Shown piece after piece: positions 931 through 62,408 of a stretch of 64,000 nt of DNA (the first letter of the stretch is position 1; each line of letters opens with the position of its first letter). The notes under the pieces were generated by a model. That model was not told the DNA's origin, ran no database searches, and was given only the letters and a program-made list of their open reading frames with translations. The DNA comes from Octopus vulgaris (taxonomy: Eukaryota): assembly GCA_951406725.2 (NCBI GenBank), contig OX597820.1, positions 10,044,001-10,108,000 of the forward strand, given 5' to 3'. The translations under genes were made by a program, and so were the position numbers.

Positions 931-1196
931 TATATATATATATATATATAAAATTAATTAAGGGTAGAAATTGATATTTATCAATTAAGACCAGTGGTCT
1001 AGCATATTAAAAAAGAATCCGAAGATTAAAATATTTATATATACCAATTAAGGACTGAACACGAAAAGTGGACAGTCAACATGCTAGATATAGACGTCAA
1101 ATCGTCATTCTCCACAAAAGATTATGTTCTCAGATCAAACTCAACACAAAACCATAGCAATAAACAAGTGAAAAATATACGAAATAAAATAATTAC

Positions 1197-1261
1197 CCAT
1201 GTACTAACTTAGTTTCAGCTGTTATTTTCCGCAAGGAAAACTGCAGCCATCATCAGCATGG
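1197..1261 (-). ncRNA. Type I hammerhead ribozyme, copy 1
   Basis: Minus strand CCATG-CTGATGA-t-GGCTG..(TTTTCC ttgc GGAAAA)..CAGCT-GAAA-CTAA g TTAG-TA^CATGG. Both core boxes, stems I/II/III and a GUA cleavage triplet are present. Confidence 0.85.
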
Positions 1262-1701
1262 TCCGTTATAAATGTAATTTGCTGGACTAAATGCAAACAC
1301 GATACCGAAATATCGCGTGCATGGAGTTCAGCCTATTACATTTGAATATATCTTTCAAATGCCTTTACTCTGGCGCGTTGAGACCCGAGAAAACTAGCCT
1401 GCAGCTAATAATTAGCAGCAGTTAATTTATCGGTTAGAGAACATTTATTTATATAAAATTAATTAAGGGTAGAAATTGATATTTATCAATTAAGACCAGT
1501 GGTCTAGCATATTAAAAAAGAATCCGAAGATTAAAATATTTATATATACCAATTAAGGACTGAACACGAAAAGTGGACAGTCAACATGCTAGATATAGAC
1601 GTCAAATCGTCATTCTCCACAAAAGATTATGTTCTCAGATCAAACTCAACACAAAACCATAGCAATAAACAAGTGAAAAATATACGAAATAAAATAATTA
1701 C

Positions 1702-1766
1702 CCATGTACTAACTTAGTTTCAGCTGTTATTTTCCGCAAGGAAAACTGCAGCCATCATCAGCATGG
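1702..1766 (-). ncRNA. Type I hammerhead ribozyme, copy 2
   Basis: Identical to 1197-1261, offset by 505 nt. Confidence 0.85.
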
Positions 1767-1809
1767 TCCGTTATAAATGTAATTTGCTGGTATATATATA
1801 TATATATAT

Positions 1810-22491: not shown

Positions 22492-22495
<4 letters not shown>

Positions 22496-23033
22496 ATCTT
22501 CATTTCACTTAATTTATCAAGCTTCTGTATTCCTAGCACATATTTCGCCTTAATGTACTGATATATGAAAAATATATGGCTTGTGTTAGTAATACCAGCG
22601 ATAATAATAATTTTTATTTTATCGCAATTTGATTTGTTTACATATTTCTCGATAAATTACGAGCGCCAGGCGATATACCAGAATTCCCTAGTTTTGTCGG
22701 GACGTTCGGAGTCTGCGCAGTGATATGATTAGTTAGAGAGTAAATCATTAGAAGCACATGCTTCTAGTGAGTTAGGATCCCAGAAAGACAGGGTCTCACT
22801 GAAGAATTCTCCCTGAGCAAATAAATTATCTTTATTGCTGAAAAGAAAGAAACTGCAGTCTGAGAATTACCGGTTTAGTAAATGTTTTTATCTTCATTTC
22901 ACTTAATTTATCAAGCTTCTGTATTCCTAGCACATATTTCGCCTTAATGTACTGATATATGAAAAATATATGGCTTGTGTTAGTAATACCAGCGATAATA
23001 ATTATTTTTATTTTATCGCAATTTGATTTGTTT
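22492..23033 (+). mobile_element. Non-coding partial-tandem element (394-nt period) with one hammerhead
   Basis: 22492-22640 is repeated at 22886-23033. The hammerhead lies just before the second copy, and both ends are in (TA)n. Confidence 0.78.
22794..22865 (+). ncRNA. Type I hammerhead ribozyme
   Basis: TCTCA-CTGAAGA-a-TTCT..(AGCAAATAAA..TTTATTGCT)..AGAA-a-GAAA-CTGCAG-TC^TGAGA: 5-bp stem I, palindromic stem III, GUC triplet. Confidence 0.82.
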
Positions 23034-23319
23034 ATATATATATATATATGTGTACACACACACACACACACAGAGGTAGTTAGGGGTAAATCCCAGATGT
23101 TTCCTCTTGAAGCACATCTGTTTATTCCATTATTACAAGCCAATATGTAGTCTCAGCATGACGAATAAATAGTGTCAAAAAAAATTTCCAATTCCTTCGA
23201 GGTGTAGGAAGAAAGTTAGCTTCGAGCAATCCGTAGTGAATATAATAGAAAATAACTGCCAGGAACAATTATCGAAAAGCGATGACCTGAAAAAATGTTC
23301 TTTTTATATTTTTACAAGC

Positions 23320-24119: not shown

Positions 24120-25460
24120 TTCCTCGGTAGGCGACCAGAGTTGCCGAGTATGCGAAAAAGAATACAAGAATTGCGGAATGGAATATGGGACACCCGGGCT
24201 ACATAAGTTTCATAGTGATTTGAACCACGAAGTGGTAAAATCTAAGCGAGGCGTATACCGCCGTCTATTCTTCAGGTCAAGGATATCTTGGTTAGATTAA
24301 ATGCTACATTGCCACAAGGAGGTACATGTTGATATAAAGATTCAATCAGAATGTGTTGAGAGCACAGTATGTAGGGGGTATATAAATGAGGGGGGAAATA
24401 AGTTATAGAAGGAGAGAAGAAAGGAAAAAAATAAAAATAAAATATAGGGGTGTGAGAGAAAGGGGGAATTTGACGGGGTCGGTGGTAGATAATATAATAG
24501 TTTTAGCTTAATCACAGAATTTAATTGTGAGATTAGCATTTGAAGAGGAGAGATTGGGGAAATATTTTTGATCGTGGGGGACAAAAGAAAGTATGTATAA
24601 ATATAATAAGATAGGGTGGGGAGTTTAAGATTGGCTAGTGGGTCTATGGTCAAAAGTCATAAATTAGTATACGATGTAGGCGTTTGTATTTGTACGTTTA
24701 GGGGTGGAGTGGGTAGGAGGGGGAGGTATGAGAAATATAAGGTGACAAAAATGTTTTAGGTAGGAAGTCAAAATACGGATAGAAAATTGTAATTGAAAAT
24801 TAAGGAATTAGACGGGTAGAAAAAATATTGTTGGTTTAATAATTAGTGGTAGTGAGGGTGGATGAGTGGAAAATGAATATATGAGAGTTATGGAGAGACA
24901 AGAGCGAGGTCGGGTTGTCATTATTTGTATTTCGAGAATAGATTTAGTGCCCGATGTTTGCCGGTGAATATTATACTAATGCGTTCATTGAGACAGTCTG
25001 TGGATTACAAAATAACTATGACCTCGGCTACGCAGAGATCACACTTAATATTATATCTGCTCTATCGTTCGGCGTTGGTGATTATGGACTATTTAAGAAT
25101 GTAAGGAGTTGAGTCAAGCGTTAGTTTATTGATAAGCTGAGATAACGATGTATTGCTAGATTTTGTATGGGATTTGAAGCCAGAGTAGTGATTGCTCACT
25201 CTAGCTTTGAAGGTGGTGCTACATGAACCGATGTAAATGTAGTTGCAGTTGTTAGTTGATACTGTGCATTTATAAACTATGTTTTTAGTAAGACAGCGGT
25301 TATTCAAAGGACAGGAGGTCTGATGCTGCATAGGTTTGTAGGGGGTATTCCGGATGAGGTTGTGATGAGATTGTTGTGACGAATCGGTGTTTGGTTTGTT
25401 ATTATAGTTGGTGCTAAGGTTATCATTTGTTAAGTGGTTGCTATTGCTAACATCCAAACG
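24120..25460 (-). mobile_element. Penelope-like element relic: GIY-YIG endonuclease region plus 3' terminal region
   Basis: ORF 25089-25457 has CPLNNRCLTKNIVYKC..YIYIGSCSTTFKARVSNHYSGF..NTSLS. Further downstream is KCDLCVAE (CxLCxxE motif of Penelope endonucleases), interrupted by stops. Confidence 0.85.
24197..24278 (-). ncRNA. Hammerhead ribozyme motif (slightly decayed) at the 3' end of the Penelope relic
   Basis: GAC-CTGAAGA-ATAG..CTAT-GAAA-CTTATG-TA^GCC. Cores and stem II are intact, with one mismatch each in stems I and III. Confidence 0.65.
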
Positions 25461-25685: not shown

Positions 25686-25776
25686 TTTTTCTGATGAGTA
25701 TAGAATTATTGTGCAACCTTCTTTGTAATAATTACCGCCACTATACCAGTGCACACCACTGAAACGCGTGTAAAGA
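25686..25776 (+). ncRNA. Degenerate hammerhead-like motif in an inverted Penelope-related segment
   Basis: TTTT-CTGATGA-GTATAG..CTATAC..-GAAA-CGCGTG-TA^AAGA. Stem II does not close cleanly onto GAAA. Confidence 0.45.
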
Positions 25777-32330: not shown

Positions 32331-32449
32331 TACATTCAATTGAAGAATTAGACTTTTCTGTTATATTTTGTGAATGAACTGGAATATCTATGTTTCGAAT
32401 TTCATCAAAATTGCAGATGAGGGTTATTTCCGTCTTTACACACCCTAAA

Positions 32450-34617
32450 AAGATTCCCCAAAATTTTTCGAAAATTTTCCCCAAAAATTTTTCAAAAATT
32501 TCTGCCGAAAATTTTTCGAAAATTATCACCGGAAATTTTTCGAAAATTTCCACCGGAAATTTTCCCCAAAAATTTATCGAAAATTTTTCCCAAAAACTTT
32601 TTCAACAATTTTCCCCAAGAATTTTTCGAAAATTTTCCCCAAAAATTTTCCCCAAAAATTTTTCGAAAATTTTTACCGAAAATTTTAACCAAAAATTTTT
32701 CGAAAATTTTCACCGGAAATTTTTGCCGAAAATTCTACCCAAAAATTTTTCAGAAATTTTCACCGAAAATTTGACCCAAAAAATTTTCACCAAAAATTTT
32801 ACCCAAGAATTTTTCGAAAATTTTTACCGGAAATTTTACCCAAAAATTTTCACAAAACCTTTTTCGAAAATTTTCACCAAAAATTTTTCAGAAATTTTAA
32901 CAGAAAATTTGACCCCAAAAATTTTGACCAAAAATTTTACCCAAAAATTTTTCGAAAATTTTCACCGAAAATTTTACCCAAAAATTTTCACCAAAACTTT
33001 TTCGAAAATTTCCACCAAAAATTTTTCGAAAATTTTCACCGGAAATTTTTGCCGAAAATTTTACCCAAAAATTTTTCGAAAATTTTCACCGAAAATTTTA
33101 CCCAAAAATTTTCACCAAAACTTTTTCGAAAATTTTCACCAAAAAAAATTTTCGAAAATTTTCACCGGAAATTTTTGCCGAAAATTTTACCCAAAAATTT
33201 TCGAAAATTTTCACCGAAAATTTTACCCAAAAATTTTCACCAAAACTTTTTCGAAAATTTTCACCAAAAATTTTCGAAAATTTTCACCGGATATTTTCAC
33301 CGAAAATTTTACCAAAAAATTTTCACCAAAAATTTTTTTCAATAATTTTTCGAAAATTTTTGCCTAAAATTTTCCCCAAAATTTTTCGAAAATTTTCATG
33401 GAAATTTTACCCAAAAATTTTTCTGAAAATTTTTACCCAAAATTTTACCCAAAAATTTTTCGAAAATTTTCACCGGAAATTTTTGCCGAAAATTCTACCC
33501 AAAAATTTTTCAGAAATTTTCACCGAAAATTTTACCCAAAAATTTTCACCAAAACTTTTTCGAAAATTTTCACCAAAAAGTTTTCCAAAATTTTCACCGG
33601 AAATTTTTGCCGAAAATTTTACCCAAAAATTTTTCGAAAATTTTCACCGAAAATTTTACCCAAAAATTTTCACCAAAACTTTTTCGAAAATTTTCACCAA
33701 AAAGTTTTCGAAAATTTTCACCGGATATTTTCACCGAAAATTTTACCAAAAAATTTTCACCAAAAATTTTACCCAATAATTTTTCGAAAATTTTTGCCTA
33801 AAATTTTCCCCAAAAATTTTTCGAAAATTTTCATGGAAATTTTACCCAAAAATTTTTCGAAAATTTTTACCCAAAATTTTACCCAAAAATTTTTCGAAAA
33901 TTTTCACCGGAAATTTTTGCCGAAAATTCTACCCAAAAATTTTTCAGAAATTTTCACCGAAAATTTTACCAAAAAATTTTCACCAAAAATTTTACCCAAA
34001 AATTTTTCGAAAATTTTCACCGAAAATTTTACCCAAGAATTTTCGAAAATTTTTGCCGAAAATTATACCCAAAAATATTTCGAAAATTTTCACCGAAAAT
34101 ATTACACAAAAATTTTTCAGAAATTTTCACCGAAAATTTTACGAAATTTTCACCGGGAAATTTTTGCCGATAATTCTACCCAAAAATTTTTCGAAAATTT
34201 TTACCGTAAATTTTACCCAAAATTTTTGAGTAAAATTTTCGGTGAAAATTTCTGAAAAATTATTGGGTAGAATTTTCGGCAAAAATTTCCGGTGAAAATT
34301 TTCGAAAAACTTTTGGGGAAAATTTTCGAGAAAGTTTTGGTGAAAATTTTTGGGTAAAATTTTCGGTAAAAAGTTTCGAAAAATTTTGGGGAAAATTTTC
34401 GAGAAAGTTTTGGTGAAAATTTTTTGGTAAAATTTTCGGTGAAAATTTCTTAAAAATTTTTGGGTAAAATTTTCGAAAAATTTTTGGGGAAAATTTTCGG
34501 CAAAAATTTTCGAAAATTCTTGGGTAAAATTTTCGGTGAAAATTTTCACCGAAAATTTGACCCAAAAAATTTTCACCAAAAATTTTACCCAAGAATTTTT
34601 CGAAAATTTTCACCGGA
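32450..34617. repeat. A-tract satellite array 1 (GAAAATTTT/CCCAAAAATTTT/CACCG subunits, ~10-13 bp), with inverted segment ~34225-34545
   Basis: Direct inspection. Confidence 0.95.
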
Positions 34618-35323
34618 AATGAAGATTGATGTGTTTTTGATTTCAATACTAACAGAACATATATATACACTCGTCGACTCAAACACAAACGCTCATATAC
34701 ACACTGTCCCAATAACCCCCACCCCACCACCACCACACATTTATTCACACAGAGTATTTTGCTTTCAGACAATTTGTTATATACACCTTTCCTTTTCTAT
34801 ATTCATAAATTTATTCCTTTTTTTTATGTTTTATTATTTTATATTTTATTTTTCATCTCTCATTATTAACAAATTTATTACATTTTATTTCGCGTTTTTG
34901 TCTGAAATCTATTCTTGTCGTTCTGTCCTTCGTATTTTTTAAAATTTTTACATCATTAAAAAAACATTTCGCATTTAACTTGAGGAGATCTTCAAAAGTA
35001 TGTTGAATCTTCTGAAATTAATTTTCAATCAGTCCATTATACAAATTGAAACCTGACAGTTGTTTTTCATTTTTTAGCACTTACCTGAGGATCGGGATTT
35101 GAAACTACCTGCAGTAAATTATAAACTTACAGCTGCAAAATATCATAAACGGTGATACTTGCATTGGGCACCGTAGACTAACTAGCTGGAAACAAACGTT
35201 TTCCTAAAAATATGTGTACATACACAGGCATATGTTGTGTGTGAATATGTATGTATTCATATACACGTATTACTATACACGTATGTCTCTCCCTCTCTCT
35301 CTCTTTGTATATATATTTGTATG

Positions 35324-35354
<31 letters not shown>

Positions 35355-35416
35355 GTCTTTATATACGAGGGGATGGTGAAAAGGTCCTGGCTTTGGGTAA
35401 AAGAAAATATAGGTAG

Positions 35417-35496
<80 letters not shown>

Positions 35497-35542
35497 GTCT
35501 ATCTGTCTATCTGTCTATCTATCTATCTATCTCTCCCTCCAC

Positions 35543-35641
<99 letters not shown>

Positions 35642-36470
35642 CCTATCTATCTATCACGCCTAAAACCGTCGGGCCATGGCAATTTCTGAATTGACCCAAA
35701 AGAAACATTTGGGGGAATTTTTGAAATTTTCTCGAATTTAAAACGAGGATTTCCGAGAATCTCCTCACAGTTCATGTAATCTTTTAAAATCTCATCCTGC
35801 CTCAGCTTTTGATTTCTTCCTAGTTTTTCATTTTTCACTTTTCTCTTTTCGTTTCTTAATCGCTAATTGCCAATTTTTCAATTGTCACTTTCTTCTACCT
35901 ATTCGTTCCTCCTGTCATGTTCACAAGAGCCAGAACTTATACTTACTTACACTAACTTCTCTTAGCTTAACATCCCCTGTTTCATTCTGACACTCCACCC
36001 TCCCCTTTCCCCTTCCCAACCGCTCCTACAAACGGCGCTACCCTGTTGTCTCTCTGTACTAGACCACTAAAGCTGCTAATACAAATATTATTTTTTCTCA
36101 CGTTCTATATGTGAATTCAATTCATAAACTGAATACATTTACTGCTTCTAAACATTTTATTTCGTTTCTTCAAATATATTACTTGAAAAATCATCTTGAT
36201 TGTTGATAGCGTATGGCAGACGAAAAGATAAACGGGAGGACACAACTCTTGTATTATATAGACTATGTTTGGTCCTTAAGGATTGATTTTGCAAAATGGG
36301 AAAACAGGAAAATGTTATATATAATACTAGCAGAGATACCCGGCGTTGCCCGTTTACATTCAATTGAAGAATTAGACTTTTCTGTTATATTTTCTGAATG
36401 AACTGGAATATCTGTTTCGAATTTCATCAAAATTGCAGATGAGGGTTATTTCCGTCTTTACACACCCTAA
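34616..36470 (+). repeat. Segmental duplication block A, copy 2
   Basis: Starts GAAATGAAGATTGATGTG as at 30683. Confidence 0.95.
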
Positions 36471-38230
36471 AAAAAATTCCTCAAAAATTTTTCTAAAATT
36501 TCTGCCGAAAATTTTCACCGAAAATTTTCCCCAAAAATTTTTCGAAAATTTTCCCCCAAAAGTTTTCAAAAATTTTCCCCAAGAATTTTTCGAAAATTTT
36601 CACTGAAAATTTTCCCCAAAAATTTTCGAAAATTTTCACCAAAAATTTTTCACAAAAATTTTCCGAAAATTTTCACCGAAAATTTTACCCAAAAATTTTC
36701 ACCAAAGATTATTGGAAAATTTTCCCCAAGAATTTTTCGAAAATTTCCACCAAAAATTTTCCCCAAAAATCTTTCGAAAATGTTTCGAAAATTTTCCTCA
36801 AAACTTTTTCGAAAATTTTCGCTAAAAATTTTTCGAAAATTTTCACCGAAAATTTTCCCCAAAATTTTTCGTAATTTTTCCCCAAAAAGTTTTCGAAAAT
36901 TTTTACCAAAAATTTAACCCAAAAATTTTTCGAAAATTTTCACAAATTTTTACCCAAAAATTTTCACCAAAAATTTTTCGAAAATTTTACCCCAGAATTT
37001 ATCGCAAATTTTCACCGGAAATTTTATCCAAATATTTTTCGAAACTTTTCACCGAAAATTTTACCCAAAAATTTTCACCGAAAATTTTATCCAAAAATTT
37101 AACCCAAAAATTTTACCCAAGAATTTTTCGAAAATTTTACTCAAAAATTTTTTGAAAATTTTCTGCAAAAATTTTACCCAAAAATTTTTCGAAAATTTTT
37201 ACCGAAAATTTTACCCAAAAATTTTCACCAAAACTTTTCGAAAATTTTCGCCAAAAATTTTTCGAAAATTTTCACCGGAAATTTTTGCCGAAAATTCTAC
37301 CCAAAAATTTTTCAGAAATTTTCACCAAAAATTTTACCCAAGAATTTTTCGAAACTTTTTGCCTAAAATTTTACCCAAAAATTTTTCGAAAATTTTACCC
37401 AAAACTTTTTGGAAAATTATCCCAAAAAATTTTTCGAAAATTTTCCCCAAAAATCTTTCGAAAATTTTCACCGGAAATTTTTGCCGAAAATTTTTACTTA
37501 AAAATTTTTCGAAAATTTTTACCGAAAATTTTACCCCAAAATTTTCACCAAACCTTTTTCGAAAATTTTCCCCAAAAATTTTTCAAAAATTTTCACCGGA
37601 AATTTTACCCAAAAATTTTTCTAAAATTTTTACCGAAAATTTTACCCAAAAATTTTCACCAAAACTTTTTCGAAAATTTTCCCAAAAATTTTTCGAAAAT
37701 TTTCACCGAAAATTCTTGCCGAAAATTCTACCCAAAAATTTTTCGAAAATTTTCACCGAAAATTCTTGCCGAAAATTCTACCCAAAAATTTTTCGAAAAT
37801 TTTACCCGAAAATTTTTCGCAAATTTTCACCGAAAATTTTACCCCAAAATATTTCGAAAATGTTCACCGAAAATTTTACCCAAAAATTTTTCGAAAGTTT
37901 TCACCGAAAATTTTTGCCGAAAATTCTACCCAAAAATTTTTCGAAAGTTTTTGCCGGAAATTTTCCCTAAAAATTTTTCGAAAATTTTCACCGAAAATTT
38001 TTGCCGAAAATTCTACCCAAAAATTTTTCGAAAATTTTACCCGAAAATTTTTCGCAAATTTTCACCGAAAATTTTACCCCAAAATATTTCGAAAATGTTC
38101 ACCGAAAATTTTACCCAAAAATTTTTCGAAAATTTTCACCGAAAATTTTTGCCGAAAATTCTACCCAAAAATTTTTCGAAAATGTTCACCGAAAATTCTA
38201 CCCAAAAATTTTCCGAAGATTTTCACCGAT
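36465..38230. repeat. A-tract satellite array 2
   Basis: Same subunits. Runs from the Helitron-end flank to GATCCTCCCAAATTTACAAAC. Confidence 0.95.
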
Positions 38231-41200
38231 CCTCCCAAATTTACAAACTTATTTTAGCGGTCTTTCAGTTTTTCTAAGCCCTGTAAAAGGATTCGGAGGG
38301 TTGGTCCGCCAGCCTATCTATCTATCTATTTGCTTCCGTGTTGCTCATGCTTAAGTTGTCGTGTATGTATGTATATATATATGTATGTATGTATATATGT
38401 ATGTACGGATGGATGTAAAGTAAAACAAAACAGACGAATTTACTTTTTTACGTGTTTCAGTCATTTGACTGTGGCCATGCTGGAGCACCGCCTTTAGTTG
38501 AGCAAATTGACCCTAAGACTTATTCTTTGTAAGCCTTGTACTTATTCTAACGGTGTCGTTTGCCTAACCGCTCAGTTACGGTGACGTAAACACCAGCATC
38601 CGTTTCAAGCGATGTTGGGAGAGAGGACAAACACAGACACACAAGCACACACAAGCACACACACATACACACACACACACACACATACACACACACACAC
38701 ACATATATATAAATATATTTGACGGGCTTCTTTCAGTTTCTGTCTACCAAATCCACTCACAAGGCTTTGGTCGGCCTGAGGCTATAGTAGAAGACACCTG
38801 CCCAAGGTGCCATGCAGTGGGACGGAACCCGTAACCATGTGGTTCGTAAGTAACCTACTTACAACACAGCCACTCCTACGCCTATGTTTATTTATATAAT
38901 ATTTATTTACATCATTTTACGCATATTCAATTAACAATGAATATCATTATGTAAGGACAATCTTATAACCTGATTGCCTTATTAAATCTTTAGAAATTGC
39001 TTATCATTCATTTGTTATTTTTAGTATTGATATGGCGTAGACGACATTGTTCTCTTGTGGTAATAATCGCCAATCTCGAAATTGCAAAATATACATTTGG
39101 CTAATCTGCTATATATCAACCTGTTTATCTATCTGGGTTTATGTATCTCTATGTATGAGTGTATGAGTGCCTGTCTGTGTGTGTGCATGTGCCTCATTGA
39201 ATCTGTGAATGACAGTACCAAACTATTTTATATTTTTGAGATGAGAAATTATGTACATTATTTACGATTGACTGATAGGTATCCTCGCCTTGTTTCTTGT
39301 TATCACAACGTTTCGGCTGGTGTACTTTCCAGCCTTCGCTAGGTGTACTAGTGGAATTTCGAACCCTTTATTTGTCTCATAGGGCACTCTGTTCTTATTC
39401 CTAAGGTATGTTGATGATGTGATTTTTCTGTTGATATTATCTAAGTTTAATCATAGGCAGCGATTTAAAAAAATAATATTAACAGTAAACTAACATCGGC
39501 AACATACCTTAGGAATGAGAACAGAGTACCCCATTAGTTAAATAAAGGGCTGGGTTTGAAATTCCACCAGAATACTTGATGAAGGCTGGAGAGTATACCA
39601 GCCGAAACGTGGTAACAACAAACAAGATGAGGACAAATATAGGTCAAATGTAAATAAAAATATATCATACTATATTTCGTTAATATTTGAGTCAGGATGA
39701 TAACCAGGAATATGAGACCTAGGTGTTACGAAATAGTGTCAAGACAACCCAAAGCATGAAGACAGAGCGTCTAATTGGTTGCTTGAACACAGAGAAACAG
39801 AAACGTAATGATGTAAAAATACAAAAAAATACAAATGACAGAACGACGAGAATAGATGGCAGACAAAAACGCGAAATAAAATGTAATAAATTTGTTAATA
39901 ATGAAAGATTAAAAATAAAATATAAAATAATAAAACATATAAAAGGAGCAAATTACGTTTGTATTTCTCTGTGTTCAAGTAACTACATCCTACGTTTGAA
40001 ATAATTACCAGTCGTATTAGGTAATGGGGACATATATAAATCCTGAAAATACCGAAATATTTAAGAGTGGTTTTGTCTTTGATTATAGGTTTATTCGAAT
40101 AGTGTTGACCTGATGTTAAACAGTGTCACCAACACCTTTCCAACTTCCTGGATATTACTATGACAAGTCCCAGGATGCACAGAACCGCTTTCCACGGCAT
40201 ATAGAAGACTGAAATCGCGACATTCCCTCTATATGGAGCGCCGGTCCATTATTAGGTAACTCACTTACAGCTGAGTGGACTGGATCAATGTGAAATGAAG
40301 ATTTTTTTCTAAAAAAAAAAAAACAGCGCACCGCCAGGTCCAACAACCGAAACCACGATCTTGTGTGCACTATTCTATCTGCTGGACCACGGGCCTTCAC
40401 ACTAAGCAGTATTAACAACGACATTTCAAATAGTGAACGATATCGCGTCTTTTCCTATTTTGTCAACAACTCCTGCAACAAATATGTTCTAATTAAGTCA
40501 TTGAGAAGTTGGAGCATTTGCAAGTTACTTAAGGTTTAGTCTGGGGCACGGCAAACACTCAGTTTTGAAACTCTTTTGTGGCATAGCTACAGTGTGTATG
40601 TCCTCCGAGGCATTCCCTCAGTTTGACGCCCGTCGCCCCGTGGTCTGTCCCATAAATAGGCTTATAAAACAAACCCGAATGTAGTCTCCATAAAAGTTCC
40701 ACCCCAGGCGGACCACCCATATTCCCCCCATCCAGCTCGCCAACGGCATTTCTTGTCCTTTTAGGTAAACGATTAAATCACTGGAATCCTCTGCAAGCAG
40801 TTTGTAGTCCCTTAATTCATAGTGACGTATGCAATTCATTTAGGCAAATGAGTTTATAGTTGTGGCTCTCTACAAGCAATGCTGTTTTAACTTTGCATCG
40901 TGAATCAACTGTCATTCGTGGGGATCTTCAACAGCTAACGATATCCTATTATTATTTCGTTTATTCGGTGAAATAGCAAAGTTGTAAGATCGTCGAATAA
41001 CACGATTTATGGAATTCGTACCGAATGACGGCGTTTTGTGTTTCAATTTCCAGCCCCAAAATAAACTTTTGCCTTTCATCCATTTGAAGTTGATGAGTAA
41101 AGTACGAGTCCTTGGTAATAAATTATTGTAATTAACATAACATCGGACCAGCTGTGTTTTGCTTATTTCTCCGGCTGTTTGTTTTCTGATGGTAACGTCT

Positions 41201-42855
41201 GAGACGCCATTGCAGCAATGTTTTATCGGCCGTTATAAAAGTGACAGTGAGAGGGAGAGACTTCTTGCATCAATATGTGACTGCTAGACCCGCATGAAAC
41301 ATCTTGTTCAGTCCGGTGTCATAACTGGACTTAGTGAATAACGAGGTTTGATATTTGAGACATCGTTATGTTTTCTGGAAGATACAGATCTACGGTTCCA
41401 CATGACATACGGACATACCCAGGTGAAATGTTTAATGTAAAACGCTTTGAAACTTTGTCACAAGGTTAGTAATGTTTGGGGAGTGAGTAACTGGTGCTTT
41501 TATCGACCCCAGAAGGATGAAAAGTAAAGTCGCTCTCAGCAGAATTTGAACTCAGGACGTAAAGAGTTGCAAGAAACACGGTTAAGCATTTTCCCGAACC
41601 TCCATCGGCCCCGCCTGTTCGCTGCCTTGATGATGTTGTGCATGCATAATTCTTTCTAATTTTGACACAAGGCCAACAATTTTGAGGGGAGGGGAAGTCG
41701 ACTGCATCGTCCCCAGTGCTCAGTTGATACATGTTTTATCGATCTTGGAAAAGACATATGCTCTAAGACATTCCAGGCGTGACGGCCACATCTGTTTTTC
41801 TGCATTGTGTACTTAATGTTATATTAATATTATACGAGACGTATAGGTCGTGATATGATGGATATTTAGCTGCTATTTTTAGCAAAGCGAGCGAGTGACC
41901 GACTGACCACGTAAATGATCCCTCATTGGCTTGTACTGCACGTGCTGATTCAAATGTTACTGGCAGAGTATTCCGTCAGTTACGACAAAGAGTGTTCCAG
42001 TTGAGTCAATTAACCGAAGAGCTTGCTCGTGAAGTTAAGGTGAAAGTGGCTGAGTACTCCACAGACACACGTACCCTTAACGTAGTTCTCAGGGAGATTC
42101 AGCGTGACACACCAAAAGTGACAAGGTTGACAAACTGAACCACACGTACAACTCATTTTTTTGCCAACTGAGTGAAGTGGACTCAAGTAACGTGAAGTAA
42201 AGTGTCTTGATCAAGGACACAACGCATTGCCGCAAATCGAATCCACGACCTTACGATTGTGAACCGAATACACAATCAATTAAAACTACGGGTTTTGTCA
42301 TCTCGTAATTGTTAGTATTTCAGCCAGTATTTAAGTGTTAAAAGTAACACAGTTTTTCGAACTGTAAACATTTATATCCTGTTCATTTGATAGATGAGAT
42401 AGTCGAGCCTGTCAGTGTTGACATAAAAACGTTTTCTTTCCTCTCCTGTACAGATTAACGAAGCTTTATTGACAATGAGGTTGTAGTGCCTAGAGTGGTT
42501 CCAATCTTTTCATACTTCAAGTAGTTGATAGTTTATGCATCAAGGGCTTATTTTATTAAAATATTCTAATATTGCCCAATCAACTGTTGGATTTGCTCAT
42601 CAGAATTTAGTAATTGCCGATGGTTGTGATGCTGATGGTACCGTCGGAAGCATTTATGGTGATGGTATTTGGAAATTCTCATTAGTGTTGCCCGTTTCTT
42701 TTCCTCTACTTTTCTCGCCTTCGTTTAATAAAGAAGACGAAATTAACGGAGATGAAATCTTCAGATTATCGAATTTCAATTTTGTCGAGTAGTGAACGAA
42801 TTGAAAATAGCCTTAGAGGTAAAATGTTTCGATTAGAATGCATAAACTCCTGGGT
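38230..42855 (+). repeat. Segmental duplication block B, copy 1 (contains SINEs at ~38443-38883 and ~42040-42270)
   Basis: Colinear with 50980-55660 and, in part, 46020-49352. Confidence 0.95.
39236..39660. repeat. Fold-back element with decayed hammerheads in both arms (copies at ~47065-47490 and ~52030-52455)
   Basis: ACGTTTCGGCTGGTGTACTTTCCAGCCTTC (left) mirrors TTGATGAAGGCTGGAGAGTATACCAGCCGAAACGT (right). Confidence 0.75.
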
Positions 42856-43813
42856 TTTCGAAAATTTTCACCGGAAATTTTTGCCGAAAATTTTACCCAA
42901 AAATCTTTCAGAAATTTTCACCGAAAATTTTACCAAAAAATTTTCACCAAAAATTTTACTCAAAAATTTTTCGAAAATTTTTACCGAAAATTTTACCCAA
43001 AAATTTTCACCAAAACTTTTTCGAAAATTTTCCCAAAAATTTTTCGAAAATTTTCACCGGAAATTTTTGCCGAAAATTCTACCCAAAAATTTTTCGAAAA
43101 TTTTAATTTCAAAAATTTTCGGGTAAAAATTTTCGAAAATTTTCGAAAAATTTTTGGTGAAAATTTTTGGCAAAATTTTCGGTGAAAATTTTCGAAAAAT
43201 TTTGGGTAAAACTTTCGAAAAATTTTGGTGAAAATTTTAACACGAAAATTTTCGACAAAAATTTTGACCAAAAATTTTTGGTGAAAATTTTTAATAAAAC
43301 TTTTTCAAAAATTTTCACCAAATATTTTTCGAAAATTTTCACCGGAAATTTTTGCCGAAAATTTTACCCAAAAATTTTTCAGAAATTTTCACCGAAAATT
43401 TTACCAAAAATTTTCAAAAAATTTTGGTGAAAAGTTTCCCAAAATTTTTCGAAAATTTTCACCGGAAATTTTTGCCGAAAATTTTACCAAAAATTTTTTT
43501 TTGCAGAAAATTTTACCAAAAATTTTCACCAAAATTTTCGAAAAATTTTCGAAAAATTTTTGGGTAAAATTTTCAAAAATTTTTGCCGAAAATTTTACCA
43601 AAAAATTTTCACCAAAAATTTTTGGGTCAAAATTTTCGAAAATTTTCACAAAATTTTTCGAAAATTTTCACCAAAAATTTTACTAAAAAATTTTTCGAAA
43701 ATTTTCACCGAAAATTTTACGAAAATTTTTCGAAGATTTTCACCGAAAATCCTTTTACAAACTTATTCTAGCGGTCCCCAAAAATTTTTCGAAAATTTTT
43801 CGGACCGGAAATT

Positions 43814-43815
<2 letters not shown>
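42853..43815. repeat. A-tract satellite array 3 (with inverted patches)
   Basis: Direct inspection; GGTGAAAATTTT-oriented patches at ~43120-43285. Confidence 0.93.
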
Positions 43816-43860
<45 letters not shown>

Positions 43861-43930
43861 AATCTATTTCTATCTATCTATGTATTTGCTTCCGTGTTGC
43901 TCATGCTTAAGTTGTCGTGTATGTATGTAT

Positions 43931-44480
43931 ATTATTCTTTCGTTTATTCGGTGAAATAGCAAAGTTATAAAATCATCGAATGATACGATTTATGGAATTC
44001 GTACCGAATGACGGCGTTTTGTGTTTCAGACTCCAGCCCCAAAATAAACTTTTGCCTTTCATCCATTTGAAGTTGATGAGTAAAGTACGAGTCCTTGGTA
44101 ATAAATTATTGTAATTAACAGAACATCGGACCAGCTATGTTTTACTTATTGCTCCGGCTGTTTGTTTTCTGATGGTAACGTCTGAGACGCCATTGCAGCA
44201 ATGTTTTATCGGCCGTTATAAAAATGACAATGAAAGGGAGAGACTTCTTGCGTGAATGTGTGACTGCTGAACCTCCATAAAACATCTTGTTCAGTCCGGT
44301 GTCATAACTGGACATAGTGAATAACGAGGTTTGATATTTTAGTCATCGTTATGTTTTCTGGAAGACACAGATCTACGGTTCCACATGACATACGGACATA
44401 CCCAGGTGAAGTGTTTAATGTAAAACGCTTTGAAACTTTGTCACAAGGTTAGTAATGTTTGGGGAGTGAGTAACTGGTGA
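43931..44480 (+). repeat. Internal fragment of block B
   Basis: Near-identical to ~48805-49352. Confidence 0.92.
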
Positions 44481-46020
44481 TTTTTCGAAACTTTTTACCG
44501 AAAATTTTCCCCAAAAATTTTCACCAAAACTTTCTCGAAAATTTTCCCCAAAAGTTTTTCGAAAATTTTCACCGGAAATTTTTGCCGAAAATTCTACCCA
44601 AAAATTTTTCAGAAATTTTCACCGAAAATTTTACTCAAAAAGTTTCGAAAATTTTCACCGAAAATTTTCCCAAAAATTTTCACCAAAACCTTTTAGAAAA
44701 TTTTCCCCAAAAATTTTTCGAAAATTTTCACCGGAAATTTTTTCTACAAAAATTTTTCAGAAATTTTCACCAAAATTTTACCAAAAATTTTTCGAAAATT
44801 TTCACCGGAAATTTTTGCCGAAAATTCTATTTTTCGAAAATTTTTACTGTAAATTTTACCCAAACATTTTCACCAAAACTTTTTCGAAAATTTTCCCCAA
44901 AAATTTTTAGAAAATTTTCACCGCAAATTTTTGCCGAAAATCTTACCCAAAAATTTTTCAGAAATTTTAACAGAAAATTTGACCCAAAAATTTTACCCAA
45001 AATTTTCACCAAAACTTTTTCGAAAATTTTCACCAAATATTTTTCGAAAATTTTCACCGGAAATTTTTGCCGAAAATTTACCAAAAATTTTTCAGAAATT
45101 TTAACAGAAAATTTGACCCAAAAAAATTTTCACCAAAAATTTTACCAAAAATTTTCGAAAATTTTACCCAATAATTTTTCGAAAATTTTCACCGGAAATT
45201 TTTGCCGAAAATTTTACCAAAAAATTTTTCGAAATTTTCACCGAAAATTTTACCAAAAAATTTTCACCAAAAATTTTTCCCAAAATTTTCACCAAAACTT
45301 TTTCGAAAATTTTCACCGGAAATTTTTTGCCGAAAATTCTACCCAAAAATTTTCGAAAATTTTTACCGTAAATTTTACCCAAACATTTTCACCAAAACCT
45401 TTTCGAAAATTTTCTCCAAAAATTTTTTCGAAAAGTTTCACCGGAAATTTTTGCCGAAAATTCTACCCAAAAATTTTTCAGAAATTTTAACAGAAAATTT
45501 GACCCAAAAAATTTTCACCAAAAATTTTACCCAAAATTTTCACCAAAACTTTTTCAAAATTTTCACCAAATATTTTTCGAAAATTTTCACCGGAAATTTT
45601 TGCCGAAAATTTTACCCAAAAATCTTTCAGAAATTTTCACCGAAAATTTTACCCAAAAATTTTCACCAAAACTTTTTTCGAAAATTTTCCCCAAAAATTT
45701 TTCGAAAATTTTCACCGGAAATTTTTGCCGAAAATTCTACCCAAAAATTTTTCGAAAATTTTTACCGTAAATTTTACCCAAACATTTTCACCAAAACTTT
45801 TTCGAAAATTTTCCCCAAAAATTTTTCGAAAAGTTTCACCGGAAATTTTTGCCGAAAATTTTACCAAAAAAATTTTCACCAAAAATTTTACTCAAAAATT
45901 TTCACCAAAAATTTTACCCAAGAATTTTTCGAAAATATTCACCGAAAATTTTAATAAAAAATTTTTCGAAAATGTTCACCGAAAATTTTACACAAAAATT
46001 TTCCGAAGATTTTCACCGAT
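44478..46020. repeat. A-tract satellite array 4
   Basis: Direct inspection; colinear with array 5. Confidence 0.95.
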
Positions 46021-46103
46021 CCTCCCAAATTTACAAACTTATTCTAGCGGTCCTTCAGTTTTTCTAAGCCCTGTAAAAGGATTCGGAGGGTTGGTCCGCA
46101 AGC

Positions 46104-46171
<68 letters not shown>

Positions 46172-46496
46172 GTATTTGCTTCCGTGTTGCTCATGCTTAA
46201 GTTGTCGTGTATGTATGTATATACGTATGTATGTATGTATGGATGGATGGATGTAAAGTAAAACAAAACAGACGAATTTACTCTTTTACTCTTTTACGTG
46301 TTTCAGTCATTTGACTGTGGCCATGCTGGAGCACCGCCTTTAGTTGAGCAAATCGACCCCAGGACTTATTCTTTGTAAGCCTAGTACTTATTCTAACGGT
46401 GTCGTTTGCCTAACCGCTCAGTTACGGTGACGTAAACACACCAGCATCCGTTTCAAGCGATGTTGGGGAGGGGACAAACATAGACACACAAGCACA

Positions 46497-46540
<44 letters not shown>

Positions 46541-49352
46541 AATATATTTGACGGACTTCTTTCAGTTTCTGTCTACCAAATCCACTCACAAGGCTTTGGT
46601 CGGCCTGAGGCTATAGTAGAAGACACTTGCCTAAGGTACCACGCAGTGGGACTGAACCCGGAACCATGTGGTTCGTAAGTAACCTACTTACAACACAGCC
46701 ACTCCTACGCCTATGTTTATTTATATAATATTTATTTACATCATTTTACGCATATTTCATTAACAATGAATATCATTATGTAAGGACAATCTTATAACCT
46801 TATTGCCTTATTAAATCTTTAGAAGTTGCATATCATTCATTTGTTATTTTTAGTATTGATATGGCGCAGACGATATTGTTATCTTGTGGTAATAATCGCC
46901 AATCTCAAAATTGCAAAATATACATTTGGCTAATCTGCTATATATCCACCTGTTTATCTGTCTGGATTTATGTATCTCTATGTATGTGTATATGAGTGCC
47001 TGTCTGTGTGTGTGCAAGTGCCTCATTGTATCTGTGAATGACAGTACCAAACTATTTTATATTTTTGAGATGAGAAATTATGTACATTATTTACGATGGA
47101 CTGATAGGTATCCTCGCCTTGTTTCTTGTTATCACAACGTTTCGGCTGGTGTATTTTCCAGCCTTCACCAGGTGTTCTAGTGGAATTTCGAACCCTTTAT
47201 TTGTCTCATAGGGCACTCTGTTCTTATTTCTAAGGTATGTTGATGATGTGATTTTTCTGTTGATATTATCTAAGTTTAATCATAGGCAGCGATTTAAAAA
47301 AATAATATTAACAGTAAACTAACATCGGCAACATACCTTAGGAATGAGAACAGAGTACCCCATTAGTTAAATAAAGGGCTGGGTTTGAAATTCCACCAGA
47401 ATACTTGATGAAGGCTGGAGAGTATACCAGCCGAAACGTTGTGGTAACAACAAACAAGATGAGGACAAATATAGGTCAAATGTAAATAAAAATATATCAT
47501 ACTATATTTCGTTAATATTTGAGTCAGGATGATAACCAGGAATATGAGACCTAGGTGTTACGAAATAGTGTCAAGACAATCCAAAGCATGAAGACAGAGC
47601 GTCTAATTGGTTGCTTGAACACAGAGAAATAGAAACGTAATGATGTAAAAATACAAAAAAATACAAATGACAGAACGACAAGAATAGATTTCAGACAAAA
47701 ACGCGAAATAAAATGTAATAAATTTGTTAATAATGAAAGATTAAAAATAAAATATAAAATAATAAAACATAAAAAAGGAGCAAATTACGTTTGTATTTCT
47801 CTGTGTTCAAGTAACTACATCCTACGCTTGAAATAATTACCAGTCGTATTAGGTAATGGGGACATATATAAATCCTGAAAATACCGAAATATTTAAGAGT
47901 GGTTTTGTCTTTGATTATAGGTTTATTCGAATAGTGTTGACCTGATGTTAAACAGTACCAACAACACCTTTCCAAACTCCTGGACATTACTATGTCGAGT
48001 CACAGGATGCACAGAACAGGTTGTCCGGTTTCCACGGCATATAGAAGACTAAAATCGCGACATTCCCTCTAAATGGAGCGCCGGTCCATTACTAGGTAAC
48101 TCACTTACAGCTGAGTGGACTGGATCAATGTGAAATGAAGATTTTTGTCTAAAATAAAAACAGCGCACCGCCAGGTCCAAGAACCGAAACCACGATCTTG
48201 CGTGCACTATTCTAACTGCTGGACCACGCGCCTTCACACTAGACAGTATTAACAACGACATTTTAAATAGCGAATGATATCGCGTCTTTTCCTATTTTGT
48301 CAACAACTCCTGCAACAAATATGTTCTAATTAAACCATTGAGAAGTTGGAGCGTTTGCAAGTTACTTAAAGTTTAGTCTGGACCACGGCAAACACTCAGT
48401 TTTAAAAATCTTTTGTGGCAGCCATTTCCACAGTGGCATAGCCACAGTGTGTGTGTTCTCCGAGTCATGCCCTGAGTTTGACACCCGTCGCCCCGTGGTC
48501 TGTCCCATAAATAGGCTTATAAAACAAACCCGAATGTACTGTCTCCATAAAAATACCACCCCGGGCGGACCACCCATATTGCCCCCATCCAACTCCCCAA
48601 CGGGTTTTCCTGTCCTTTTAGGTAAACGATTAAATCACTGGAACCCTCTGCAGGCAGTTTGTAGTTCCTTAATTCAAAGTCACATAGGCAATTCAGTTAG
48701 GTAAATGAGTTTATAGTTGGGGCCCTATACAGGCAACGCTGTTTTAACTTTGCATCGTGAATCAACTGTCATTCGTTGGGATCTTCAAAAGCTAACGATA
48801 TCCTATTATTCTTTCGTTTATTCGGTGAAATAGCAAAGTTATAAAATCATCGAATGATACGATTTATGGAATTCGTACCGAATGACGGCGTTTTGTGTTT
48901 CAGACTCCAGCCCCAAAATAAACTTTTGCCTTTCATCCATTTGAAGTTGATGAGTAAAGTACGAGTCCTTGGTAATAAATTATTGTAATTAACAGAACAT
49001 CGGACCAGCTATGTTTTACTTATTGCTCCGGCTGTTTGTTTTCTGATGGTAACGTCTGAGACGCCATTGCAGCAATGTTTTATCGGCCGTTATAAAAATG
49101 ACAATGAAAGGGAGAGACTTCTTGCGTGAATGTGTGACTGCTAGACCTCCATAAAACATCTTGTTCAGTCCGGTGTCATAACTGGACATAGTGAATAACG
49201 AGGTTTGATATTTTAGTCATCGTTATGTTTTCTGGAAGATACAGATCTACGGTTCCACATGACATACGGACATACCCAGGTGAAGTGTTTAATGTAAAAC
49301 GCTTTGAAACTTTGTCACAAGGTTAGTAATGTTTGGGGAGTGAGTAACTGGT
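46020..49352 (+). repeat. Block B, copy 2 (partial)
   Basis: Colinear with 38230-41495; ends at GAGTAACTGGTG, then satellite. Confidence 0.95.
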
Positions 49353-50980
49353 GATTTTTCGAAACTTTTTACCGAAAATTTTCCCAAAAATTTTCACCAA
49401 AACTTTCTCGAAAATTTTCCCCAAAAGTTTTTCGAAAATTTTCACCGGAAATTTTTGCCGAAAATTCTACCCAAAAATTTTTCAGAAATTTTCACCGAAA
49501 ATTTTACTCAAAAATTTTACCCAAAAATTCTTCGAAAATTTTCCCCAAAAATTTTCACCAAAACTTTTTAGAAAATTTTCCCCAAAAATTTTTAGAAAAT
49601 TTTCACCGGAAATTTTTGCCGAAAATTCTACCAAAAATTTTTCAGAAATTTTCACAGAAAATTTTACCCAAAAATTTTTCGAAAATTTTCACCGGAAATT
49701 TTTGCCGAAAATTTATTTTTTCGAAAATTTTTACTGTAAATTTTACCCAAACATTTTCACCAAAACTTTTTCGAAAATTTTCCCCAAAAATTTTTCGAAA
49801 ATTTTCACCGGAAATTTTTGCCGAAAATTCTACCCAAAAATTTTTCAGAAAATTTTCAGAAATTTTAACAGAAAATTTGACCCAAAAAATTTTACCCAAA
49901 AATTTTCACCAAAACTTTTTCGAAAATTTTCACCAAATATTTTTCGAAAATTTTCACCGGAAATTTTTGCCGAAAATTTTACCCAAAAATTTTTCAGAAA
50001 TCTTAACAGAAAATTTGACCCAAAAAATTTTCACCAAAAATTTTATCCAAAAATTTTCGAAAATTTTACCCAATTATTTTTCGAAAATTTTCACCGGAAA
50101 TTTTTGCCGAAAATTTTACCCAAAAATTTTTCAGAAATTTTCACCGAAAATTTTACCAAAAAATTTTCACCAAAAATTTTACTCAAAAATTTTTCGAAAA
50201 TTTTTACCGAAAATTTTACCCAAAAATTTTCACCAAAACTTTTTCGAAAATTTTCCCCAAAAATTTTTCGAAAATTTTCACCGGAAATTTTTGCCGAAAA
50301 TTCTACCCAAAAATTTTTCGAAAATTTTTACCGTAAATTTTACCCAAACATTTTCACCAAAACCTTTTCGAAAATTTTCCCCAAAAATTTTTCGAAAATT
50401 TTCACCGGAAATTTTTGCCGAAAATTCTACCCAAAAATTTTTCAGAAATTTTAACAGAAAATTTGACCCAAAAAATTTTCACCAAAAATTTTACCCAAAA
50501 ATTTTCACCAAAACTTTTTCAAAAATTTTCACCAAATATTTTTCGAAAGTTTTCACCGGAAATTTTTGCCGAAAATTTTACCCATAAATTTTTCAGAAAT
50601 TTTCACCGAAAATTTTACCCAAAAATTTTCACCAAAACTTTTCGAAAAGTTTCCCAAAAATTTTTCGAAAATTTTCACCGGAAATTTTTGCCGAAAATTC
50701 TACCCAAAAATTTTTCGAAAATTTTTACCGTAAAATTTTACCCAAACATTTTCACCAAAACTTTTTCGAAAATTTTCCCCAAAAATTTTTCGAAAAGTTT
50801 TCACCGAAATTTTTGCCGAAAATTTTACCAAAAAATTTTCACCAAAAATTTTACTCAAAAATTTTCACCAAAAATTTTACCCAAGAATTTTTCGAAAATA
50901 TTCACCGAAAATTTTAATAAAAAATTTTTCGAAAATGTTCACCGAAAATTTTACACAAAAATTTTCCGAAGATTTTCACC
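49351..50980. repeat. A-tract satellite array 5
   Basis: Direct inspection. Confidence 0.95.
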
Positions 50981-51066
50981 GATCCTCCCAAATTTACAAA
51001 CTTATTCTAGCGGTCCTTCAGTTTTTCTAAGCCCTGTAAAAGGATTCGGAGGGTTGGTCCGCAAGC

Positions 51067-61877: not shown

Positions 61878-62408
61878 TCGATTACATCGACCCCAGTGCG
61901 TAACTGGTACTTATTTAATCGACCCGAAAAGATGAAAGGCAAAGTCGACCTCGGCGGAATTTGAACTCAGAACGCAGCGGCAGACGAAATACCGATTTCT
62001 TTACTACCATCAAGGGGCTAAACACAGAGAGGACAAACAAGGACAGACAAAGGGATTAAGTCGATTACATCGACTCCAGTGCGTAATTGGTACTTATTTA
62101 ATCGACCCCGAAAAGATGAAAGGCAAAGTCGACCTCGGCGGAATTTGAACTCAGAACGCAGCGGCAGACGAAATACCGATTTCTTTACTACCAACAAGGG
62201 GCTAAACACAGAGAGGACAAACAAGGACAGACAAAGGGATTAAGTCGATTACATCGACTCCAGTGCGTAAGTGGTACTTATTTAATCGACCCCGAAAGGA
62301 TGAAAGGCAAAGTCGACCTCGGCGGAATTTGAACTCAGAACGTAACGGCAGACGAAATACCGCTAAGCATTTCACCCGGCGTGCTAACGATTCTGACAGC
62401 TTGTCGCT
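61878..62408 (-). mobile_element. SINE with tandemly repeated body (~184-bp period, ~2.7 units)
   Basis: CGATTACATCGA at 61879, 62062 and 62246. Only the last unit carries the head-like part (62360-62408). Confidence 0.85.

Follow-up and report, generated by a model that had tools for sequence, protein, structure and literature searches.

Two identical hammerhead motifs stand 505 nt apart on the minus strand of a 64,000-nt stretch of the Octopus vulgaris genome (contig OX597820.1, positions 10,044,001 to 10,108,000; hereafter the window, in whose coordinates all positions are given), and the question raised by this locus is what kind of element carries them and which machinery copied it. An earlier note, made from the letters alone, had proposed a non-autonomous retrozyme, releasing a 505-nt RNA that could circularise and be mobilised in trans by a Penelope reverse transcriptase. 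The analysis presented here favours a model in which Penelope machinery copied a retrozyme into (TA)n DNA from a circular RNA monomer, and we put the probability of this model as a whole, circular template included, at roughly 0.6.

Comparison of the window with itself revealed that positions 945-1285 and 1450-1790 are exact copies over 341 nt with a period of 505 nt, which bears out the direct repeat described earlier and refines its length, then given as about 335 nt. Read on the minus strand, the insertion consists of one complete 505-nt unit (945-1449) and two thirds of a second (1450-1790, 341 nt, identical to 945-1285 and 5'-truncated at 1790), and it is bounded by (TA)n tracts at 931-950 and 1791-1808. 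The first tract, the target DNA at the 3' end in the RNA sense, merges with a putative priming site, site A (UAUAUA, 945-950), at which the insertion in the window ends and of which an internal copy is found at 1450-1455; the second tract adjoins the truncated 5' end. Another UA-rich putative priming site, site B, lies at 1031-1043 (second copy at 1536-1548), and the window copy has no end there. The 86 nt from site A to site B (945-1030) form a 'tail' containing a motif that is retained by distant relatives. All of these sites are on the minus strand, and target-site duplications are unreadable within (TA)n. When the unit is read as a loop, its longest ATG frames encode 19 aa (ribozyme strand) and 44 aa (opposite strand), in agreement with the earlier description of a repeat that has no ORF. 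Its GC content of 33% lies below the 45-50% applied as a retrozyme criterion, and the predicted cut-to-cut monomer (1202-1706, minus strand, 505 nt) is strongly self-paired when folded (z = -6.2), an equal stability being reached by 0 of 100 shuffled sequences. The base at position 1370 is C in the window and T in all eight sequencing runs compared. Directly beside the left TA tract, a minus-strand frame of 131 aa (534-929) had no Pfam hit; we take it to resemble the 3'-terminal part of a LINE reverse transcriptase.

A descriptor scan of both strands of the whole 64 kb returned three hammerheads, namely the two type I motifs of this element, on the minus strand at 1261-1197 (downstream copy) and 1766-1702 (upstream copy), and a further one at 22.8 kb, which belongs to an unrelated element. 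The two motifs had been reported in the earlier note, and the cuts predicted here after GUA, at 1202/1201 and 1707/1706, fall at the same positions as those from which it had derived the 505-nt unit. Each motif is composed of a 5-bp stem I, CUGAUGA, an extra U, a 12-bp bulged stem II, GAAA and a short stem III; the extra U, one of which the descriptor permits, and the G-U pair that closes stem II are details absent from the earlier note. A base left unpaired at the 5' end of stem II is known from Penelope hammerheads, according to the part of PMC4209133 that was available. An Infernal-type search had also been called for, and in it the Rfam hammerhead families gave no match, either at the gathering score or at E ≤ 10; the motif thus rests on the descriptor and on covariation. 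In an alignment of 37 of the 60 distinct variants, from which mostly single-change copies of the main type were left out, 96.4% of the cells pair, compared to 27-45% in slid controls. Two-sided changes are found in 4 of 21 pairs, in stems II and III, and represent about four events inherited by subfamilies, part of the set having been retrieved with a pattern that fixes the core; the pair-count measure was equalled by 126 of 500 shuffles. Judged by these alignments, the ribozyme looks to be under selection, with apparently compensatory changes in its stems.

The earlier note had further supposed that so short a stem III favours cleavage as a dimer, and folding agrees: alone, stem III forms no hairpin (0.0 kcal/mol, with a probability of 0.01-0.03 in context), whereas with a second copy it forms a duplex at -8.6. 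The corresponding stems of other subfamilies are perfect palindromes (-9.0 and -13.6). Stems III of the dimer type are described for Penelope and amphibian hammerheads in the sections of PMC4209133 and PMC7229834 that were accessible. On the other side, the upstream ribozyme has a stem I probability of 0.02 when the whole window transcript is folded, and among Xenopus retrozyme dimers only one of nine cleaved in vitro, as stated in the excerpted text of Li, Clavereau and Pollet 2026 (bioRxiv 10.64898/2026.07.22.740005).

The third hammerhead belongs to a second, unrelated repeat at 22493-23039, which has (TA)n on both sides and a period of 394-396; its motif, on the plus strand at 22793-22865, has a palindromic stem III. 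Forty copies of this repeat scored at 98% or above; their 3' end is fixed, and an inverted arrangement was found in 0 of 10 loci. It is likely to be a second retrozyme family, perhaps served by another partner, and a permissive alignment of the 505-nt unit to it did not rise above shuffles. Elsewhere in the window, 32447-50982 holds several long arrays in which an AT-rich repeat of 12-13 nt shows higher periods of 37 and 50 nt. The same succession of short repeats follows every array, which suggests a repeated block of about 5 kb. A tandem repeat of 184 nt (2.6 copies with 97% matches) is present at 61878-62362.

A count of genomic copies had been recommended, and copies proved to be many. A 21-nt pattern from the ribozyme has 409 exact matches in the species' own 2.8-Gb, microsatellite-dense genome and its reversed control has 0; the first 100 of the 409 fall into 39 clusters on four contigs, from which the family may be extrapolated to about 160 loci, well over a hundred. 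Unit periods are 505, 506 and 507, and the main subfamilies are 97-100% identical to the window unit. That identity is better evidence of youth than the identity of the twin copies, from which a recent insertion had been deduced and which is to be expected at birth of two copies made from one template. Searching with an 8-nt stem III pattern brought 102 matches, among them subfamilies at about 87-95%, and a pattern from the 3' end and tail gave 173, from which 30 loci were read and found to be older non-coding relatives. Three of these align over most of the unit at 60-78% identity, two of them with a hammerhead that matches the descriptor. The whole unit is kept at about 60% identity in the relatives L181 and L194, the former with a period of 535 nt and a hammerhead. 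That relatives down to about 60% identity are still non-coding indicates a long-lived non-coding lineage.

The structure of the copies was read at 89 loci, chosen by ribozyme patterns and best hits and mostly the first listed, and the proportions given here apply to these loci and not genome-wide. Arrays are plain head-to-tail units, with arms of up to 7 units. The linkage to an RT/GIY-YIG ORF that the earlier note had wished to see examined was not found, as none of the 89 loci has an ORF joined to the family copy; Penelope protein hits occur at two, both of them separate copies across a TA tract. The relatives gave a similar picture, with a joined ORF in 0 of 30 loci; in two of them Penelope protein hits lie close by but are not joined in sense. 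At L100, L132 and L195, copies of the family lie close to Penelope 3' ends and are likewise not joined in sense, as would be expected of two elements that insert into the same TA tracts. Taken as sequences, these copies constitute a young, genome-wide, non-coding family of non-LTR retrozymes with a predicted ribozyme, and the non-autonomous nature first proposed is supported by the copy number, the absence of a joined ORF and the dimer-type stem III.

The ends of the copies identify the probable machinery. In the ribozyme sense, 145 of the 157 arms at the 89 loci begin at site A (73 arms) or site B (72 arms), and 135 of these 145 ends adjoin TA-like DNA. Two inverted arms with their 3' ends outward are present at 68 loci, and the window copy is one of the 21 one-armed loci. 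Where there are two arms, one begins at A and the other at B in 57 of 68 cases (two of the 57 stemming from a single segment that was duplicated); the combinations A+A and B+B are absent, and in the other 11 cases an end lies at neither site. In the first 57 loci the A+B split was 37 out of 37 (p = 1.5e-11). The arm junctions mostly overlap by 0-10 nt or leave a small gap, and the lengths of the arms within a locus showed no correlation (rho 0.22, p 0.20). Copy-back of one arm from the cDNA of the other was considered and rejected, as at L002 and L005 neither arm can contain the other.

An inverted truncated copy, a tail of 30-40 bp at one end and a bias towards microsatellites make up the layout of Penelope elements in the available portion of Craig et al. 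2021 (bioRxiv 10.1101/2021.04.23.441226), and Frangieh et al. 2024 (PMC11167929), in the text accessible, describe a Penelope reverse transcriptase with two internal start sites that define the tail and with extension of both target strands. By analogy, the pattern of A and B ends is the Penelope 'tail': a tail from two internal starts, an inverted 5'-truncated copy and a microsatellite target are all found in this family. The proposal of mobilisation in trans by Penelope is thus backed by the A/B ends, the inverted arms and the (TA)n targets, and we consider it very probable that this is a non-autonomous element mobilised by Penelope machinery.

Candidate partners are present in the same genome, in which there are many GIY-YIG hits, including repeated intact frames of 781 aa that match both RT and GIY-YIG. 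One Penelope family (represented by L074) inserts into (TA)n with two ends 44 nt apart, and another, young and ORF-bearing (L081), has at least 40 identical 3' regions. All 30 loci read of the latter end in (TA)n without a tail, the query having favoured tail-less ends, and all four visible second arms carry a tail of 26 nt; this family follows the same end rule as the 505-nt family. By eye, the TA-targeting proteins are of the Neptune/Nematis type in their CCHH residues and in the cysteine motif of the linker. No kinship in sequence was seen between the unit and these families. Low-stringency BLAST against 34 Penelope loci gave short AT-rich chance matches only, and when the unit was permissively aligned to the 3' regions of L074 and L081 family members, the scores were reached by 16 and 29 of 200 shuffles. 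The link to Penelope is therefore one of footprint, made, as far as these comparisons reach, without sequence kinship to the candidate partners. Several further features were noted in the course of this search. At L074 (768-4471), and also at L075 and L078, a 479-aa frame lies upstream of and overlaps the young 781-aa Penelope frame; in L074 it had no Pfam match above the cut-off, and the L074 family also has direct repeats of about 500 nt. A hammerhead-like motif with the core CCGAAGA in place of CUGANGA was seen by eye at 4800-4845 of L081. In the window itself, a weak Penelope endonuclease match (25173-25325, E 0.12) and, on the opposite strand, a hammerhead-like motif seen by eye (25691-25775) are possibly the remains of a decayed Penelope copy.

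The form of the RNA that served as template was approached through the 5' ends of the arms and through their alleles. The 5' ends are evenly spread along the unit (KS p = 0.70 for 83 multi-piece arms), none of the 157 lying within 3 nt of the cut site and five within 10 nt; 132 arms cross the cut site, 46 of them twice or more, and 214 of 217 monomers show no change in the sequence that spans it. As 5' ends do not pile up at the cut site and arms run across it, the template was something other than the cut linear monomer. Polymorphic sites compared between the two arms of a locus agree in 1029 of 1044 cases (15 disagree), shuffled arms giving a disagreement of 32%, and agreement is complete in 54 of 60 loci, with discordant arms in the other six. 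Rare alleles fixed in all 3-5 monomers of both arms were found seven times and rare alleles in only part of both arms once independently; nine were present in some monomers of one arm only and 82 in a single monomer. The nine indicate that long arms can grow after insertion, and long arms are no proof of rolling-circle copying; local duplication clearly adds units at a later stage. The concordance of the arms and the alleles fixed in both argue for a single monomer that both primers copied several times over, and a circle is probably the simplest account of such copying. At L116, L104 and L047 the arms differ at 3-5 diagnostic sites, as if from two templates; in L104 and L047, alignment overlap may contribute to the differences. 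Of six runs guessed to be RNA, one covers the unit with a single contig of 535 nt, as a closed 505-nt loop would at word size 31, and the cut site is bridged by several contigs. Contigs carry no information on ends, strand or circularity, and the same ones would arise from tandem DNA or uncut RNA; they were therefore counted neither for nor against a circle.

The same Penelope-mobilised family could also have arisen with no circle at all, if the template were an uncut tandem transcript of homogeneous source arrays and the ribozyme only trimmed read-through RNA or acted later. In vitro, the anole Penelope worked mainly on unprocessed RNA, and ribozyme cleavage was unnecessary (PMC11167929, in its available part); an uncut substrate also predicts the absence of ends at the cut site, and local duplications of one unit, of the kind seen at L087, L108, L111 and L114, can homogenise source arrays, L087 fitting in-register copying of a mixed array and local duplication equally well. 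Against it stands the excess of fully fixed alleles shared by both arms (seven) over partial ones (one independent), which holds despite single-monomer alleles being the commonest in arrays (82); many different private and fully homogeneous source arrays would also be needed. We consider this account unlikely.

A linear RNA of one to two units, on which jumps of the reverse transcriptase or strand transfer between terminal repeats lengthen the cDNA, yields the same single-monomer bottleneck as a circle, but it is hard to reconcile with the lack of a 5'-end pile-up and with the nearly invariant junction at the cut site, and appears highly improbable. Spread at the level of DNA, as a satellite with a decayed ribozyme multiplied by unequal crossover, circular DNA or rolling-circle DNA transposons, would suit the head-to-tail arrays and the local duplications; the 3' ends that are fixed and the 5' ends that are random in the ribozyme sense, the reciprocal A and B ends, the dispersal over many contigs and the compensatory stem changes leave it with very little credit. 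Finally, their Penelope tail, inverted arms and Penelope-type hammerhead might suggest that the copies derive from an autonomous Penelope as pseudo-LTR ends truncated at the 5' side, which would have no RNA of their own. This reading is scarcely tenable and is largely refuted by the 72 of 157 arms which, being longer than 560 nt, enter the next unit where the ORF would begin, and by an ORF joined at 0 of the 89 family loci and 0 of the 30 relative loci.

The favoured model, Penelope copying of a retrozyme RNA circle, would proceed as follows. A locus with more than one unit would be transcribed from the ribozyme strand; two hammerheads, likely paired through their near-palindromic stem III, are predicted to release the 505-nt monomer, which a host ligase would close, by analogy with known retrozymes. 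A Penelope protein, likely a dimer, would then nick both strands of a (TA)n tract and prime, one strand each, at the two UA-rich sites 86 nt apart, where the ends are observed. Each cDNA would extend past the cut site, to an extent that varies, before being joined head to head with the other, or a single arm would be fixed as in the window, these being the structures seen; some arrays later gain units by local duplication, a pattern likewise observed. More tentatively, and with somewhat less than even odds, a single ribozyme RNA circle may be copied twice at once by a dimeric Penelope, each subunit using its own UA site. If this is so, the family would be a genomic record of Penelope enzymes mobilising animal retrozymes in trans in the absence of sequence kinship, and the Penelope tail and inverted arm would come from strictly reciprocal start sites on one RNA circle. 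Intact Penelope ORFs with the same (TA)n target are present alongside this young family in the genome, and the published in vitro Penelope assay makes the partner, the start sites and the choice between circular and linear template directly testable.

Among known systems, the family resembles Penelope elements in its insertion and animal retrozymes in its units. As in endonuclease-positive Penelope elements (Craig et al. 2021 and PMC11167929, as far as their text was available), partial tandems, an inverted 5'-truncated copy, a one-end tail, microsatellite targets, two internal RT starts and a minimal dimer-type hammerhead are present, but unlike an autonomous Penelope-like element the 505-nt family has no RT + GIY-YIG ORF. 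Its tail is 86 nt long, compared to 30-40 in the Penelope elements of Craig et al. 2021. Its start sites are UA tracts matching the target and are used reciprocally by the two arms, whereas in the accessible text of the anole study (PMC11167929) the starts are non-homologous to the cut DNA and the strands show no difference in vitro. With the Hydra clade of Penelope it shares insertion into (TA)n, hammerheads and an occurrence in aquatic invertebrates, molluscs included (Craig et al. 2021, in part); unlike in that clade, the TA-targeting proteins here look, by eye, Neptune/Nematis-type, with no Hydra-type seen.

Animal non-LTR retrozymes, as outlined in the available sections of PMC7229834 and bioRxiv 10.64898/2026.07.22.740005, likewise consist of tandem non-coding units with one type I hammerhead each, of low GC and with a strongly self-paired monomer, and coexist with Penelope. 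At least two consecutive hammerhead units define this class; the window has two, and the lack of a coding frame, the size, the low GC, the self-pairing and the dispersed multi-copy distribution also conform to it. Units of 505-507 nt exceed the 150-450 bp given as usual for animal retrozymes in the part of Cervera and de la Pena 2020 (PMC7229834) that was seen, and lie within the 51-972 bp range of bioRxiv 10.64898/2026.07.22.740005, in the portion available. A short stem III that requires a second copy is also typical of newt and axolotl satellite hammerheads (PMC7229834, in part), and circular retrozyme RNA has been demonstrated in coral, mussel and axolotl; the octopus family differs from these in being known here from genomic sequence. 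A literature search that covered the main texts of largely non-subscription journals returned no cephalopod retrozyme, and in a word search of the accessible text of PMC7229834 and bioRxiv 10.64898/2026.07.22.740005 no mention of a microsatellite target, a tail or inverted arms came up in connection with retrozymes. The obtainable part of a review (PMC7761336) holds that retrozyme repeats have no motif revealing the mobiliser, which is not deducible from sequence, and both this review and bioRxiv 10.64898/2026.07.22.740005, in the portions available, pose the mobilising enzyme and the circle as template as open questions for animal retrozymes. The octopus family belongs to a known kind, the non-LTR retrozymes; what is new is its insertion footprint, through which retrozymes and Penelope are linked by insertion ends and not by co-occurrence.
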